Positions 5,090-27,495 of a stretch of DNA of 27,933 bases are shown here, one piece after another (position 1 is the first letter of the stretch; each line of letters begins with the position of its first letter). The position numbers and the translations under genes are program-made. The DNA is from Candidatus Nomurabacteria bacterium. GTDB lineage: Bacteria > Patescibacteriota > Minisyncoccia > Phycocordibacterales > UBA9973. The notes beneath the pieces were generated by a model. The model had not been told where the DNA came from, did not search any database, and saw only the letters and a list, made by a program, of their open reading frames with translations. The DNA is taken from the NCBI GenBank assembly GCA_020846955.1, contig JADLCZ010000023.1:1-27933 (forward strand). Reading direction: 5' to 3'.

Positions 5090-5782
5090 ATGAATACTTT
5101 TGAAGTAAAAATTGGCAATAATCTCTTTCAGACATATTTTATAGAGTGCACCCAACCAAATACAAAAGAGGACTTTTTGCAATATTTGCAAATTCAAAAT
5201 ATCCAAATATATGCCAACCCAAATGTGCTCAACGAAGTATATGAATCTTTTACAATCGACAATGTCCGCACACTCAACGAACATCACAACCAGAGATCAT
5301 CTAATGAAGGCAAAAAGATTTTTATTATCGAGGCTCTTACCATCAATCATGAAGCTCACAATGCACTTCTTAAGATGTTTGAAGAGCCAACTGTCGATAC
5401 GCATTTCTTTTTCTTAATACCACGAGTAGATACATTGCCGGATACTCTCAAATCTCGTGCCCATATAATATACGAAGATCATAAAGATAATATTTTGGGA
5501 TACAAAGAGGCAATTGAATTTATCGGGAAAAGTCCAAACGAAAGAATGGAAATTATAACAAAAATAATTGCAAAAAATAAAAATACAGAGACTAGCGCAC
5601 CACTACGCGATGATGCAAGAGTATTACTTGATGCGTGTGAATATGTAATTCGAGAAAATACAAAAAATATTGATACAGATACCTCATGGAAATTGGGAGA
5701 ATTGTTAAAAGCCAAAAAATATCTTTCGACACCAGGTGCATCTGTCAAAATGATTTTGGAACATATAGCTCTTATAGTATAA
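5090..5782 (+). CDS. holB: DNA polymerase III delta'-like clamp-loader subunit (short form)
   Basis: TIDNVR, KIFIIE, AHNALLKMFEEP and LPDTLKSR are characteristic of delta'/gamma subunits. No Walker A motif is visible. Confidence 0.75.
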   Translation: MNTFEVKIGNNLFQTYFIECTQPNTKEDFLQYLQIQNIQIYANPNVLNEVYESFTIDNVRTLNEHHNQRSSNEGKKIFIIEALTINHEAHNALLKMFEEPTVDTHFFFLIPRVDTLPDTLKSRAHIIYEDHKDNILGYKEAIEFIGKSPNERMEIITKIIAKNKNTETSAPLRDDARVLLDACEYVIRENTKNIDTDTSWKLGELLKAKKYLSTPGASVKMILEHIALIV

Positions 5783-5784
5783 GT

Positions 5785-5808
5785 AATTAGTATAAGTATA
5801 AGGAAATA
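5785..5808. repeat. Solo arm of the GTATAAG repeat family
   Basis: AATTAGTATAAGTATAAGGAAATA is the exact reverse complement of 23976-23999. Confidence 0.8.
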
Positions 5809-5853
5809 CAAAAAAGTTCCTAAAAAATACAATTTAGTGTAAAATATAAACAT

Positions 5854-6387
5854 ATGGCATACAATACACAAAATTTTAAAATAGAATTAAAAAAGGTTGA
5901 AGAATGGTTATCAAAGGAATTGTCACAAGTCCAGACTGGCAGGGCAACACCAATTGTGCTCGATGGGATCAGTATCGAGAGTTATGGAAGCCGAACAGCA
6001 CTTAAAAATGTGGCATCTATTACAGTCGAGGATCCAAAGACACTTCGTATTGCACCATGGGACAAGAATCAAATTCGTGCAATTGAGCAGGCAATACAAG
6101 AATCAAATATTGGACTTTCTGTGCTATCGGACAGCGATGGAGTAAGAGCAATATTCCCAATGCTCACTACTGAGACCCGCGCCAAACTCGTTAAAGTTTT
6201 GAAAGAGAAATTGGAAGACGCTAGAATTTCTGTACGTAAAATGCGCGGAGATGAGATAGACACAACAGCAGACTTACCAGAAGATGAAAAGAAACGCGCC
6301 AAAGATGACATTCAGAAGGTGGTAGACGAAGCGAACATTAATCTTGAAGCAATTTTCGACAAAAAAGAACACGAGGTAATGCAGTAA
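5854..6387 (+). CDS. frr: Ribosome recycling factor
   Basis: QTGRATP, SYG, ITVEDPKTLRIAPWDK, FPMLTTETR, ARISVRKMR and DIQKVVD motifs. Confidence 0.96.
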   Translation: MAYNTQNFKIELKKVEEWLSKELSQVQTGRATPIVLDGISIESYGSRTALKNVASITVEDPKTLRIAPWDKNQIRAIEQAIQESNIGLSVLSDSDGVRAIFPMLTTETRAKLVKVLKEKLEDARISVRKMRGDEIDTTADLPEDEKKRAKDDIQKVVDEANINLEAIFDKKEHEVMQ

Positions 6388-6419
6388 TTAGTGGCTAGTT
6401 TCTAGTGATTAGGTTCTAG
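6388..6419. repeat. Left arm of the inverted heptamer array (reverse complement of CTAGAAC-like units)
   Basis: TTAG TGGCTAG TTTCTAG TGATTAG GTTCTAG. Bases 6403-6419 are the perfect 17-bp reverse complement of 7390-7406. Confidence 0.85.
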
Positions 6420-6449
6420 GGAAATTATAAAAATATTTAATTAAAAATT

Positions 6450-6803
6450 ATGACCACTGATAAAGCTAGTAAAATTGTGAATATTTATGGTAAACACCTT
6501 GAACAATGCTCAAAACTTAATTTTATTTTTGGCTCTCATATACCAGAATCATTTTTACCTTTCCCAAAAGATGTTATTGAAGAAGCTTTAAATGTTCTAG
6601 CAGAGTATCATTTTAGTAATGGAAATAAGGTTGCTGTAAATTCTATGGAAAATGCTAAAGCAGGTTTAATTGGATATATAAATGACGAAGAAGCAATATT
6701 AAAATCAGTGGAACTTTAGAAGAATCAAACTTGGCGAGAGTCGATACTTCCATCTTTTAAGGAGTTTCAGAAAACATGGATCAAAACTCAAGATATTGAT
6801 TAG
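6450..6803 (+). pseudogene. Hypothetical gene with an internal TAG at 6717-6719 (89 aa, or 117 aa if read through)
   Basis: After the TAG the same frame stays open for 27 codons (KNQTWRESILPSFKEFQKTWIKTQDID) to a TAG at 6801-6803, which overlaps the AGGAG RBS of the next gene. Confidence 0.5.
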
Positions 6804-6816
6804 GAGTAAATAATTT

Positions 6817-7029
6817 ATGATAAAAGTAGGAGATAAAATCAAAGTTTCAAACATCAACGTTATTTTAGTCTATTTTTCAGATCCTCATCACGCAAAAGTT
6901 ATTTATAAAGATAATGGATATAGAATTATAGACGATATTATTTTTATTGATGGATTGTGGAAATTTGAAATACCAGGTGTCTCTGGCAAAAAATTAAAAG
7001 ATAGTGAATATACAGATTTTATAATTTAA
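6817..7029 (+). CDS. Small hypothetical protein (70 aa)
   Basis: Preceded by AGGAG and ends 1 nt before the next ATG. No motif recognised. Confidence 0.6.
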   Translation: MIKVGDKIKVSNINVILVYFSDPHHAKVIYKDNGYRIIDDIIFIDGLWKFEIPGVSGKKLKDSEYTDFII

Positions 7030-7030
7030 C

Positions 7031-7393
7031 ATGACATACAGTATAAAATCATACAAAGATTTAATTGTTTGGCAGAAGGGGTATGAACTTGTAAAGCAGG
7101 TTTATAAAATTACTTCGAAACTTCCTCAGGCTGAAGTGTTTGCTTTGCAATCACAAATGCGTCGTTCTGCTGTGTCTATTGTTTCAAATATAGCAGAAGG
7201 TAGTAGTAGAAAAACTAGAAAAGATTATTGTCAGTTTATGCATATTGCTTACGGCTCAACATCTGAATTAGAGACTCAATTATTTCTCTGTAAAGACTTA
7301 TACAACATTCCTGTAGAATCACAACTTGAATTAATCACAGAAGTAAGTAAAATGTTAAGAGCTATTATTAATAAACTAGAACCTAGCAACTAG
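7031..7393 (+). CDS. Four-helix-bundle protein (23S rRNA intervening-sequence protein family)
   Basis: SYKDLIVWQK, LPQAEVFALQSQMRRSAVSIVSNIAEG and AYGSTSELETQL are the family signature. Confidence 0.93.
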   Translation: MTYSIKSYKDLIVWQKGYELVKQVYKITSKLPQAEVFALQSQMRRSAVSIVSNIAEGSSRKTRKDYCQFMHIAYGSTSELETQLFLCKDLYNIPVESQLELITEVSKMLRAIINKLEPSN

Positions 7394-7410
7394 AACCTAA
7401 TCACTAATCC
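7376..7410. repeat. Right arm of the inverted heptamer array, overlapping the end of the four-helix-bundle gene
   Basis: CTAGAAC CTAGCAA CTAGAAC CTAATCA CTAATCC. The first units encode the C-terminal LEPSN and the stop. Confidence 0.85.
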
Positions 7411-7412
7411 AC

Positions 7413-8507
7413 ATGAATATAATAATTTTTATAATAATATTGCTTGTTTTGGTTGTGTCCCATGAATTTGGGCATTTTATTGTTGCTAAAAAGGCGGGGA
7501 TACGGGTAGATGAATTTGCTTTTGGTTTCAAGCCACGACTTTGGAGTATTAAGAAAGGCGAGACTACATATAGTATCAATGCACTGCCTATTGGTGGATA
7601 TGTATCAATCTTTGGCGAGAACCCAAATGATGAGAATACAAATGGTCCAGACCGTGATAGGAGCTTCGTACATAAGCCAAAATATATCCAGGCACTAGTA
7701 CTTGTTGCAGGAGTTGTCATGAATTTCCTTGTAGCATGGTTACTATTTACAGTTGGGTTTATGACAGGATTACCATCATCTGTTACGAATGCGCCAGTTG
7801 GATCAAATATTACAAATGCTGAGCTTGCTGTAACGAGTGTATTGAAGGATTCTCCTGCAGAGATTGCTGGATTGAAAACTGGTGATAGGATAAAACAACT
7901 TTATGTTGTTGATGACATGACAGAAGTCCCATCTATCGAAAGCCTTAAATATTTTATTCGTAAACATAGTACAGAAAATATTACAGTTGAATTTACTCGT
8001 AAATCTACAGAGATGAAAACAAATATTGTACCAAAGGCCGGACTTGTAGAAGGTGAGGCAGGGATTGGAATTGGTATGGATATGATTGGGACTTTGAAAT
8101 TACCTATACACAAAGCACTATGGCAGGGATTGAAATTATCGGCAAATGTATTCGTAGCTACAGTTGTAGGATTCTATACACTAATACACAATGCTGTAAT
8201 CGGCCAGGGTGATATGTCAGCGGTGACTGGACCTGTAGGGATTGTGGGCGTTGTTGGTAATGCCATGAGCTTCGGTTTCGTTTATCTACTTTCATTTACG
8301 GCACTTATATCTATAAATCTTGCAGTTATAAATTTGATTCCATTTCCAGCTCTAGATGGTGGAAGATTACTATTCCTACTTATTGAAAAAATAAAGGGTT
8401 CAAGAATAAAACCTAAAATTGCAAACGTAGTAAATTTTATCGGATTTTGCCTATTGATGCTTTTGATGATTGTTGTAACTTTCAATGACATTAAAAAATT
8501 GTTTTAA
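7413..8507 (+). CDS. rseP: RIP metalloprotease RseP (peptidase M50 with a PDZ domain)
   Basis: HEFGH zinc motif, PIGGYV, AGVVMN, PDZ-like SPAEIAGLKTGD, GPVGI and NLIPFPALDGG. Confidence 0.95.
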   Translation: MNIIIFIIILLVLVVSHEFGHFIVAKKAGIRVDEFAFGFKPRLWSIKKGETTYSINALPIGGYVSIFGENPNDENTNGPDRDRSFVHKPKYIQALVLVAGVVMNFLVAWLLFTVGFMTGLPSSVTNAPVGSNITNAELAVTSVLKDSPAEIAGLKTGDRIKQLYVVDDMTEVPSIESLKYFIRKHSTENITVEFTRKSTEMKTNIVPKAGLVEGEAGIGIGMDMIGTLKLPIHKALWQGLKLSANVFVATVVGFYTLIHNAVIGQGDMSAVTGPVGIVGVVGNAMSFGFVYLLSFTALISINLAVINLIPFPALDGGRLLFLLIEKIKGSRIKPKIANVVNFIGFCLLMLLMIVVTFNDIKKLF

Positions 8508-22143: not shown

Positions 22144-23904
22144 ATGAAATCTGACGAAATCAGGCAAAGGTTTTTAAAATTTTTCGAATCTCGTGGGCAC
22201 AAAATCTTGCCTTCGGCTCCGCTTGTACCTGAAAATGATCCTTCGGTGCTTTTTAACACTGCCGGTATGCAACCATTGGTACCGTATTTGATGGGCCAAA
22301 AACACCCAATGGGTTCACGATTGGCTAATATACAAAAATGTGTGCGTACGGGCGATTTAGACGATATTGGTGATAATCGTCACTTTTCTTTTTTTGAAAT
22401 GATGGGGAATTGGTCTCTTGGAGATTATTTTAAAGAAGAGGCGATTAAATGGAGTTATGAATTTTTGACCTCAAAAGAAGAAGGTCTTGGTCTTGATCCA
22501 AAGCGATTATACACTACTGTTTTTGAAGGTGATGAAAATGCACCTTTTGATCAAGAGTCAAAAGATATTTGGATGAATGTTGGTATTCCAGAAAATAGAA
22601 TTTACGCACTACCTGCAGATGATAATTGGTGGAGTCCAGGTGAAAATGGCCCTTGTGGTCCATGTAGCGAAATGTTTTATGATATGAGTGGTACCACCGG
22701 TGATCTTTCTAAGGAGGAATTTATTGATGCAGTAAACAAAGAATCTGTGATTGAAATTTGGAATGATGTATTCATGGAATACGAAAAAAAAGATGGCAAG
22801 GTTATTGGAAAGCTTGCGCAAGAAAATGTAGATACTGGGGCAGGTTTGGAGCGTATCACTGCAGTCATGCAAGGCAAACAAACTGCATACGATACTGATA
22901 TTTTATCTGATGTGATAAATAAAATCTCTGAGCTATCTGAGTTAAAGGAAATTAATTCTGAAACAACTAGATTAAAGAGAATTATTGCAGATCACTTAAG
23001 AACATCAATAATGCTTATTGCTGATGGGGTTTTGCCTTTAAGTACAGGGCAGGGATATATATTAAGAAGGCTATTAAGAAGAGCAATACGTTGCGGGCAT
23101 GCTCTAACTTTTAATAATTCCAGAGTGAGAGAAATATTTAATATTTTAGAGGAAAAATATTCTCTGACTTATCCAAATATTGTGTCAGAAAAAGAAAAAA
23201 TAATATTTGAAATGACCAAAGAATACGAGAAATTCATTAAAACATTATCTCAAGGATTGAAGGAACTTGAAAAGGGTACTGACCCCTTTGTTTTAGCTAC
23301 CACTTATGGCTTTCCTATTGAATTAACAATGGAAGAATACAATAAAAAAGGACAGGCAGTTGATTTGGAAGATTTTAGTAAGAAAATGACTGAACACCAG
23401 AAACTCTCACAAACTGCATCTGCAGGAATGTTCAAAGGTGGGCTTGCAAATCACAATGAAAAGACTATTCAATTGCACACCGCACACCATTTATTGCTTG
23501 CAGCACTTCAGGAAGTTCTGGGTAAAAGCGTGAAGCAGAGAGGAAGTAATATTACAGAAGAGCGTTTGCGTATCGACTTCAAGTTTGAGCGTAAAATGAC
23601 CGATGAAGAGAAGAAGAAAGTTGAAGACCTAGTAAATGAGAAGATAAAGCTTGGCTTGAGTGTAATTCGTCGCGAAATGCCATTGCAAGATGCGCAAAAT
23701 TTGGGTGCAGAGATGGAATTCGGCGCCAAGTATCCTGAGATTGTCTCTGTCTATACTATTGAAGATGAAAATGGCAATCAATTTTCAAAAGAATTCTGTG
23801 GAGGACCGCACGTAAACAATACAAATGAGCTCGGGCATTTCAAAATTCAAAAAGAAGAAGCAGTTTCTGCTGGAGTTCGCCGAATAAAAGCAGTGTTAGT
23901 ATAA
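22144..23904 (+). CDS. alaS: Alanine--tRNA ligase, short form
   Basis: NTAGMQP, QKCVR, FFEMMGNWS, GPCGPCSE, DTGAGLER and YILRRLLRR, plus the editing domain HTAHH / FCGGPHV / GVRRI. The protein ends before a C-Ala domain. Confidence 0.96.
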   Translation: MKSDEIRQRFLKFFESRGHKILPSAPLVPENDPSVLFNTAGMQPLVPYLMGQKHPMGSRLANIQKCVRTGDLDDIGDNRHFSFFEMMGNWSLGDYFKEEAIKWSYEFLTSKEEGLGLDPKRLYTTVFEGDENAPFDQESKDIWMNVGIPENRIYALPADDNWWSPGENGPCGPCSEMFYDMSGTTGDLSKEEFIDAVNKESVIEIWNDVFMEYEKKDGKVIGKLAQENVDTGAGLERITAVMQGKQTAYDTDILSDVINKISELSELKEINSETTRLKRIIADHLRTSIMLIADGVLPLSTGQGYILRRLLRRAIRCGHALTFNNSRVREIFNILEEKYSLTYPNIVSEKEKIIFEMTKEYEKFIKTLSQGLKELEKGTDPFVLATTYGFPIELTMEEYNKKGQAVDLEDFSKKMTEHQKLSQTASAGMFKGGLANHNEKTIQLHTAHHLLLAALQEVLGKSVKQRGSNITEERLRIDFKFERKMTDEEKKKVEDLVNEKIKLGLSVIRREMPLQDAQNLGAEMEFGAKYPEIVSVYTIEDENGNQFSKEFCGGPHVNNTNELGHFKIQKEEAVSAGVRRIKAVLV

Positions 23905-23999
23905 GGAGGAAGTATAAGTATAAGGAAAAATAAATTTAGAATAATATTTTTTAATGAATTGTAGTTTCCTTATACTATTTCCTTATACTTATACTAATT
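23898..23999. repeat. Inverted-repeat element of the GTATAAG family
   Basis: AGTATAAGTATAAGGAAA (23911-23928) and TTTCCTTATACTTATACT (23978-23995) form a perfect 18-bp inverted repeat. Extra GTATAAGG and CCTTATAC units lie on each side. Confidence 0.85.
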
Positions 24000-27408: not shown

Positions 27409-27495
27409 GATTAGTGACTAGTAGCTAGTGACTAGGTTCAAGAAAATAATTCTAAACCCACTAGAAACTAGCAACTAATTACTAGAACCTAATTC
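27409..27495. repeat. Empty inverted heptamer array of the same family as the arms of the four-helix-bundle cassette
   Basis: Left arm GATTAG TGACTAG TAGCTAG TGACTAG GTTCAAG; right arm CTAGAAA CTAGCAA CTAATTA CTAGAAC CTAATTC. There is no ORF between the arms. Confidence 0.8.

Follow-up and report, generated by a model that had tools for sequence, protein, structure and literature searches.

The genes for ribosome recycling factor (frr, 5854-6387, forward strand; PF01765 E 4.5e-45, TIGR00496) and a site-2 protease (rseP, 7413-8507, forward strand; TIGR00054 E 1.5e-81, PF02163) of a Candidatus Nomurabacteria bacterium are separated by a segment, 6388-7407, in which three small genes lie between inverted arrays of a 7-nt repeat. 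The segment was found in a 27,933-nt stretch of DNA (contig JADLCZ010000023.1 of assembly GCA_020846955.1), referred to here as the window, from the 0.8 Mb, 36% GC genome of an uncultured wastewater/sludge bacterium of the Paceibacteria/Nomurabacteria kind. This genome is denoted G000 and those of its relatives by other G numbers, with C numbers for contigs and L numbers for loci. The left arm (6388-6419, TTAGTGG CTAGTTT CTAGTGA TTAGGTT CTAG) runs in reverse orientation and is T/G-rich, with five YTAG cores spaced every 7 nt; it directly abuts the frr stop codon (TAA, 6385-6387). It is followed by orf89 (cargo gene 1, 6450-6719, cut by an in-frame TAG at 6717-6719), by orf70 (6817-7029), which encodes a small β-rich protein, and by a gene for a four-helix-bundle protein (4HB, 7031-7393), all on the forward strand and co-oriented with frr and rseP. 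The right arm (7376-7407, CTAGAAC CTAGCAA CTAGAAC CTAATCA CTAA) is a forward, A/C-rich array of five CTAR cores overlapping the 3' end of the 4HB gene, so that the last five codons and the stop (L, E, P, S, N, stop) lie within it. A first-pass annotation of this DNA, made from the sequence alone, had correctly described the array beginning right after frr, the two small open reading frames (ORFs) and four-helix-bundle gene between the arms, and the C-terminus encoded by the right arm. Its statement that the forward array ends 2 nt before the rseP ATG includes a partial unit, however; the final complete unit stops at 7407, which leaves 5 nt to the start codon at 7413.

The 4HB protein is a member of the family named after the 23S rRNA intervening sequences (IVSs), as that annotation had recognised, scoring 123.2 bits against PF05635 ('23S rRNA intervening sequence protein'; E 6.5e-36, cut-off 33.8, residues 9-110) and 117.3 bits against TIGR02436 (E 3.6e-34, cut-off 24). 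It matches the PDB entries 2GSC (E 5.7e-19) and 2RLD (E 5.3e-5), each with five chains, the first of these being a Xanthomonas homologue that forms a homopentamer (PMC4990558), and its dN/dS of 0.04-0.10 indicates strong purifying selection. It is also a distant relative of Avd, the accessory protein of diversity-generating retroelements (DGRs), and the similarity of PF05635 to Avd has been noted in a DGR paper (PMC10053308). No transposase is present within the segment, none of its proteins matches a defence-system model, and a promoter and terminator scan of it gave no signal exceeding chance. An Rfam search returned no match in the whole window (rRNA included), nor at other 4HB loci.

The frr locus was taken from 30 relatives, in 24 of which both frr and rseP were found. 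The frr stop lies 1-13 nt from the rseP start in 17 of the 24, typically as TAAnnATG, and in a combined frr and rseP tree G000 groups with G007, G010 and G012 (support 0.96), nested among genomes with empty sites; in its nearest relatives, G007 and G010, the empty sites measure 1 and 4 nt. Sister genomes in which frr adjoins rseP, which the first-pass annotation had suggested looking for, thus exist and include the closest ones. Contigs from two independent DNA studies join the segment to both flanks with no differences. Segment 6388-7407 is a discrete insertion between frr and rseP, and we refer to it as the cassette.

Unrelated insertions recur at this junction in the genus, comprising a HicB/HicA pair, a Cys-rich secreted protein, a MazG-like gene together with a gene like the tyrosine transposases (RAYTs) associated with repetitive extragenic palindromes (REPs), and small ORFs. 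The frr|rseP junction is therefore a general insertion hot spot in the genus, and at none of its other insertions there were heptamer arms found. In G013 (L003 2030-3210) the MazG-like and RAYT-like genes have CCCCAGTCCTAGGAATTGCCTAGGACTGG palindromes between them. The HicB/HicA, Cys-rich and small-ORF insertions occupy loci L016/L017 (G009/G006), L005, L007 and L011, and those with small ORFs carry terminator-like hairpins.

Heptamer arrays and the four-helix-bundle family

The arms are copies of a CTAG-heptamer repeat that is widespread in this genome and genus. Seven motif matches occur in the whole window against 0.07 expected, the genome has 16 four-unit CTAG arrays against 0 with a reversed-pattern control, and four-unit arrays are present in 35 of 61 genus genomes, the reversed control again giving none. 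Arrays occur at 24 loci of the genome, where they fill intergenic gaps exactly; 13 of these are short gene-free hairpins placed precisely between one gene's stop and the start of the following gene, the others being lone arms or arms around genes. In the typical copy a loop of 10-50 nt separates a reverse T/G-rich array of five cores from a forward A/C-rich one; such a copy has TTAG...CTAA ends and occupies the gap from stop codon to next start. An empty copy of this kind lies in the window itself at 27411-27492, where a reverse array, a 25-nt loop and a forward array fill the rpsM|rpsK gap. Further hairpins are found on contig C90, at 4HB|efp, rpsR|ssb and ssb|rpsF and upstream of rpsF, and lone forward arms stand just upstream of starts such as those of rplJ and mreB. 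The rpsM|rpsK junction measures 3-14 nt in 12 genus genomes, contains decayed CTAG arrays in two further genomes and an AGGTTAT-type heptamer hairpin in another, and this variable occupancy indicates that array elements come and go at the DNA level. Compared with MITEs, the miniature transposable elements with inverted repeats, the family has inverted arms, 24 array loci and TTAG...CTAA ends, with no clear target duplication and no transposase-bearing parent present.

Three of the four 4HB genes in the genome are bracketed by heptamer arrays. Besides the cassette gene, these are a copy at recA|efp on contig C90 and another at atpG|atpD in the ATP synthase operon (G000:C40:1011-1464, L112), where the heptamers are inverted ACAWTTR / TGTTNNN units and no tRNA was found; the copy on contig C24 is not clearly bracketed. 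A lone CTAG array also lies at atpA|atpG on C40 (2415-2453).

The first-pass annotation had suggested testing whether members of the protein family at large are flanked by inverted heptamer-periodic arrays, and many of them are. Flanks periodic at lag 7 on both sides accompany 18 of 26 other 4HB genes of the genus, compared with about 3% of 430-461 control flanks (Mann-Whitney p ~1e-13), with nothing at other lags. Across many phyla, the lag-7 threshold is passed by 43 upstream and 54 downstream flanks of 77 4HB loci, on both sides in 36, counts that include kin and so are not independent, although they span many phyla and no fewer than six core classes; at the same 77 loci the best of lags 5, 6, 8 and 9 lets seven upstream and seven downstream flanks pass. 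The core motif differs with the 4HB subfamily (CTAG, GTAG/CTAC, AATTA, TTAGC, AGGT), and the arms are mostly of 4-5 units, with a range of 3-7. In the literature found on PF05635 and on heptamer repeats (PMC4990558, PMC4692102, PMC10053308) nothing links this gene family to heptamer arrays.

Cargo slot, junctions and hosts

The slot between the left arm and the start of the 4HB gene varies by host, and cassettes of this kind with different cargo, which had been anticipated from the sequence, do recur elsewhere. It is empty in L105, L107 and L111, contains a 69-76-aa membrane protein in L099 and L109 and other membrane proteins, of 101-179 aa, in L122 and L126-L128, and carries an orf70 homologue in L065, L109 and G000. 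The 3' end of 4HB is fused to the right arm in every related cassette examined. No cargo homologues were found within the genus in 60 genomes.

In this assembly orf89 reads as a truncated, nonsense-interrupted gene. Read through the TAG (6450-6803) it would encode 117 aa, with a final stop at 6801-6803, and homologues of about 118 aa cover 97-100%. This family also occurs elsewhere without arms, and a copy in L064, 82% identical and differing at a proportion of 0.084 of nonsynonymous (pN) and 0.514 of synonymous sites (pS), has no arms or 4HB gene nearby. Contigs of two metatranscriptome libraries from other samples, otherwise at least 99.5% identical over 6638-6967, have TGG instead of TAG at 6717-6719 (A to G at position 6718), and two DNA runs from other samples keep A there (TAG), as in the assembly; the difference is most likely a strain allele. 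Homologues of orf70 lie directly upstream of 4HB, as here, in L065-L067 and L109, and have dN/dS of 0.33-0.6. In its model (pLDDT 87), orf70 forms a curved sheet of five strands and a short helix at the C-terminus. It has no significant match in the PDB, where the best is a Sub1/PC4-like single-stranded DNA binder (TM 0.42-0.47, E ~0.7), and its Atlas matches are all below 0.9. In a sister-lineage cassette at frr|rseP on a Joint Genome Institute (JGI) metagenome contig (L065:2575-2960), both arms and the orf70 homologue are kept and a frameshift and a TAA disrupt the 4HB gene, which shows that arms can persist where the passenger gene has decayed.

The cassettes are loyal to few sites. In contig look-ups all of the closest 4HB homologues (94, 91, 88, 87 and 78% identity) were located at frr|rseP with a CTAG arm on either side, and an 81% homologue, the C90 paralogue and the G016 orthologue of the latter at recA|efp. 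Among 17 close homologues in a species-level genome collection, 12 are at frr|rseP and three at recA|efp, and two are without either junction on their locus, with one elsewhere. In L134 the frr|rseP junction carries a 4HB gene of another subfamily (49% identical). The hosts of these homologues are distant, with frr 42-65% and rseP 39-60% identical to those of G000, and the most similar 4HB (92-94%) occurs in a host whose frr is 54-56% and rseP 39-41% identical. Over 12 taxa a Mantel comparison of host with 4HB identity gives a rho of -0.04 (p 0.54), against 0.53 for frr with rseP, and 4HB shows a pS of 0.55-0.66 where the saturated flanks, frr and rseP, reach 0.69-0.81. Because the 4HB is uncoupled from its hosts and has the lower pS, and because the nearest relatives have empty sites, the comparisons favour recurrent gain or exchange at a favourite junction rather than plain vertical inheritance, the divergences being old. 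The suggestion of a mobile cassette holds in so far as the insertion is discrete and sporadic, but the cassette is not a free transposon, since in many hosts this 4HB subfamily is confined to two junctions. A recent transposition from one of this genome's two loci to the other was considered and rejected, given a dS of ~1.3.

Predicted arm pairing and competing explanations

In the minimum-energy fold of 6375-7425 the stretch 6387-6419 pairs end to end with 7376-7408 at a mean pair probability of 0.85. The idea that the arms pair and loop out 1 kb of the transcript is thus upheld as a prediction. The perfect 17-bp inverted repeat on which it had been based (6403-6419 / 7390-7406) is present, but lies two units away from the end-to-end pairing favoured in folding. 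Contigs of two metatranscriptomes cover the stretch from frr to the left arm and the orf89/orf70 part of the cassette. Those that cross from frr over the left arm are in line with co-transcription, as are the shared orientation of cassette and flanking genes and the lack of promoter or terminator signals above chance.

We propose, with a probability of roughly 0.6, that 6388-7407 is an inserted, hairpin-bounded gene cassette designed like an ORF-bearing 23S rRNA IVS, but lying in an mRNA operon. Such a cassette would be gained and lost as a unit at the DNA level, exchanged between lineages at the same junction, and co-transcribed with frr and rseP. Its arms would form an imperfect stem of about 30 bp looping out the cassette RNA, which could be a plausible substrate for RNase III, and the 4HB protein, by inference from its pentameric homologues, may recognise the five-unit arrays with one core per subunit, leaving the 3-nt spacers free. 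That 4HB recognises the arrays is a tentative suggestion, falling somewhat short of an even chance, and is rated so because arms of about five units, each with a conserved 4-nt core and a variable 3-nt spacer, would suit a multimeric reader, and because the solved homologues are pentamers. Looping-out of the RNA with cleavage by RNase III is a little more doubtful. We consider it rather unlikely that PF05635 proteins and inverted heptamer arrays constitute one system, in which a pentameric ring would read five-unit arrays, one core for each subunit, and drive or protect a transposase-free, cargo-carrying element that homes to particular stop-start junctions in conserved operons and leaves behind the heptamer hairpins of bacterial intergenic DNA, the rRNA IVS being one special case.

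Several observations weigh against the proposed cassette and its mechanism. The 4HB copies differ from one another by a synonymous divergence of around 1 or higher, which leaves recent movement of the cassette undocumented, and the uncoupling from host genes could in part be an effect of strong constraint combined with saturation. Genome G060 has 16 arrays and no PF05635 match, indicating that empty hairpins need no resident 4HB gene, CTAG arrays are lacking in G069 and G072 despite three 4HB genes, and the genome-wide correlation between arrays and 4HB genes is only 0.43 and confounded by kinship. In duplex energy and in longest match there is no advantage of cis over trans arms, either at 15 loci of the genome or in five orthologous cassettes; cis arms pair no better than arms taken from elsewhere in the genome or from another host, and covariation therefore gives no support for a selected stem. 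The 17-bp match is likewise not exceptional, being reached in 3 of 28 pairings with arms from other loci, and does not mark out a specific pair of arms as the first-pass annotation had supposed. The RNA-library contigs, which are assembled sequences only, show no ends, circles or joint at 6388/7410 and leave the 4HB gene uncovered. RNase III domains (TIGR02191, PF14622, PF00636) were not found in this 94%-complete assembly; the enzyme is present in 59 of 60 genus genomes, and its absence here is probably an assembly gap. The correspondence of five units with five subunits, together with the putative binding of protein to repeat, is so far numerology; arms range over 3-7 units. A joint from 5814 to 7376 in the RNA contigs, with only 26 nt on one side, was rejected as a repeat artefact.

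The absence of cis covariation suits protein binding better than a selected stem, as would be the case if the arrays were regulator sites, bound at operon junctions by a host-serving 4HB ring that binds RNA or DNA, tunes translation or mRNA stability and autoregulates its own gene. The position of arrays 3-15 nt upstream of the rpsK, rplJ, rplL, efp, rseP and mreB starts, often as lone forward arms, accords with this, as do the purifying selection on 4HB and the architecture of core, spacer and roughly five units per arm, which fits a multimeric reader. A regulator in the service of its host would nevertheless be hard to reconcile with junction occupancy that is sporadic even among close relatives, with array-rich genomes that may lack PF05635 genes and vice versa, with the decay of 4HB in some hosts (the frameshift and stop in L065), or with a cargo slot and an uncoupling from host phylogeny that look element-like, and we judge this explanation unlikely. 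Less probable again is a passive association, in which the hairpins are an independent REP- or MITE-like family in short intergenic gaps, small accessory genes, 4HB among them, land in the same hot spots or in hairpin loops, and gene conversion between the 30-bp arms copies the loop contents, with no functional link. It would account for frr|rseP being a general hot spot, for arms that are generic and interchangeable and for an excess of empty over loaded hairpins of roughly six to one, but not for an enrichment that is peculiar to PF05635 genes and repeated in phyla whose cores differ, for the lack of heptamer arrays around every other frr|rseP insertion of the genus, or for the constant fusion of the 4HB 3' end to the right arm. 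That 4HB is an orphan Avd-type accessory protein of a DGR acting in trans, the repeats being unrelated, is highly improbable despite weak similarity to Avd (PF22296 31 bits, NF033474 29.3 bits, PHROG 'Avd protein of DGR' E 1.2e-7) and three reverse-transcriptase genes elsewhere in the genome, on other contigs, as the Avd models score below their cut-offs (40 bits for PF22296, 80 bits for NF033474), the window has no reverse transcriptase, the repeats around the gene include no template/variable pair, and every related cassette lies between housekeeping genes.

Known systems and other repeats

The proposed hairpin-bounded cassette and the 23S rRNA IVSs of Coxiella burnetii, Leptospira and Brucella (PMC4990558) have the same PF05635/S23p family inside complementary, stem-forming arms. 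Both show a sporadic, horizontally patterned distribution and exist in ORF-free versions, and the cassette resembles the IVSs further in its predicted closing stem and in a sporadic presence beside intact empty sites. The rRNA IVSs, which are excised by RNase III (PMC4990558), lie in helix 9, 25 or 45 of 23S rRNA, whereas the cassette lies between the protein-coding genes frr and rseP, has arms built of heptamer arrays and carries extra ORFs. Its 4HB gene is under strong purifying selection, while the Coxiella IVS ORF is reported to be decaying (PMC4990558). The frr|rseP cassette is a further instance, with cargo, of a heptamer-armed 4HB cassette resembling the rRNA IVS within mRNA operons.

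Intergenic heptamers have been described in Xanthomonas (GGGAATC), in Nostoc (GGGGA(T/C)T) and, as tandem heptanucleotides, in Calothrix (PMC4692102). Like the CTAG arrays they have a 7-nt unit, are enriched in intergenic DNA near ORF ends, are sometimes inverted and have no associated transposase (PMC4692102). They are G-rich, however, and have been studied as quadruplex formers with no PF05635 link reported (PMC4692102), whereas the cassette arms, in an AT-rich genome, are built around the palindromic tetramer CTAG.

REP/REPIN and MITE-type elements, such as the Correia elements of Neisseria, are short, dispersed intergenic hairpins co-transcribed with their neighbours; Correia elements are cut by RNase III, and REPs are tied to RAYT transposases. 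The cassette arms differ from these in being arrays of a 7-nt unit and not a unique inverted repeat, and no target duplication or transposase is assignable to the heptamer hairpins. A RAYT/REP link was rejected for this genome. It has seven RAYT-like (PF01797) genes, of which six could be examined; none of these is flanked by heptamer arrays, and most are flanked by GC-rich palindromes of their own, which differ from the arrays. The claim of a cassette without a transposase stands on both counts, there being none inside and the RAYT-like genes having different palindromes. Avd, for its part, forms basic pentamers. Its four-helix-bundle fold (PDB 4DWL; PMC10053308) is homologous to that of 4HB, but the cassette has no adjacent reverse transcriptase or template/variable repeats, and 4HB falls below the cut-offs of the Avd models.

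PF05635/TIGR02436 is a very large orphan family found in many phyla, and heptamer repeats have long been noted, unexplained, in intergenic DNA. Their association outside rRNA, inside essential operons, gives a testable context for both. The rRNA IVSs may be just the part so far noticed of a larger group of hairpin-bounded cassettes. These are suggested to carry small genes from lineage to lineage with no transposase that can be recognised, and they may shape operon transcripts in the genome-reduced bacteria of the candidate phyla radiation (CPR). What the window adds is the loyalty to two junctions, the cargo slot and the uncoupling from host phylogeny.

The RAYT-like gene of the window lies at 324-1112, with other copies on contigs C11, C15, C45, C47, C49 and C53; its palindrome is translated in frame twice (HQSDWW) and occurs again downstream. 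A second 7-nt family, of GTATAAG units, follows the holB stop at 5776-5802 and recurs 18 kb away at 23898-23995, and its reverse-complement units stand directly upstream of the fourth 4HB gene (G000:C24:4191-4228). The stretch 5774-5804 is common to DNA contigs from many loci. On contig C22 a CTAG array (G000:C22:4960-4984) lies inside an ORF of 1184 aa, in the sole frame that avoids the TAG triplets of the array, and it is therefore translated as a protein insertion.

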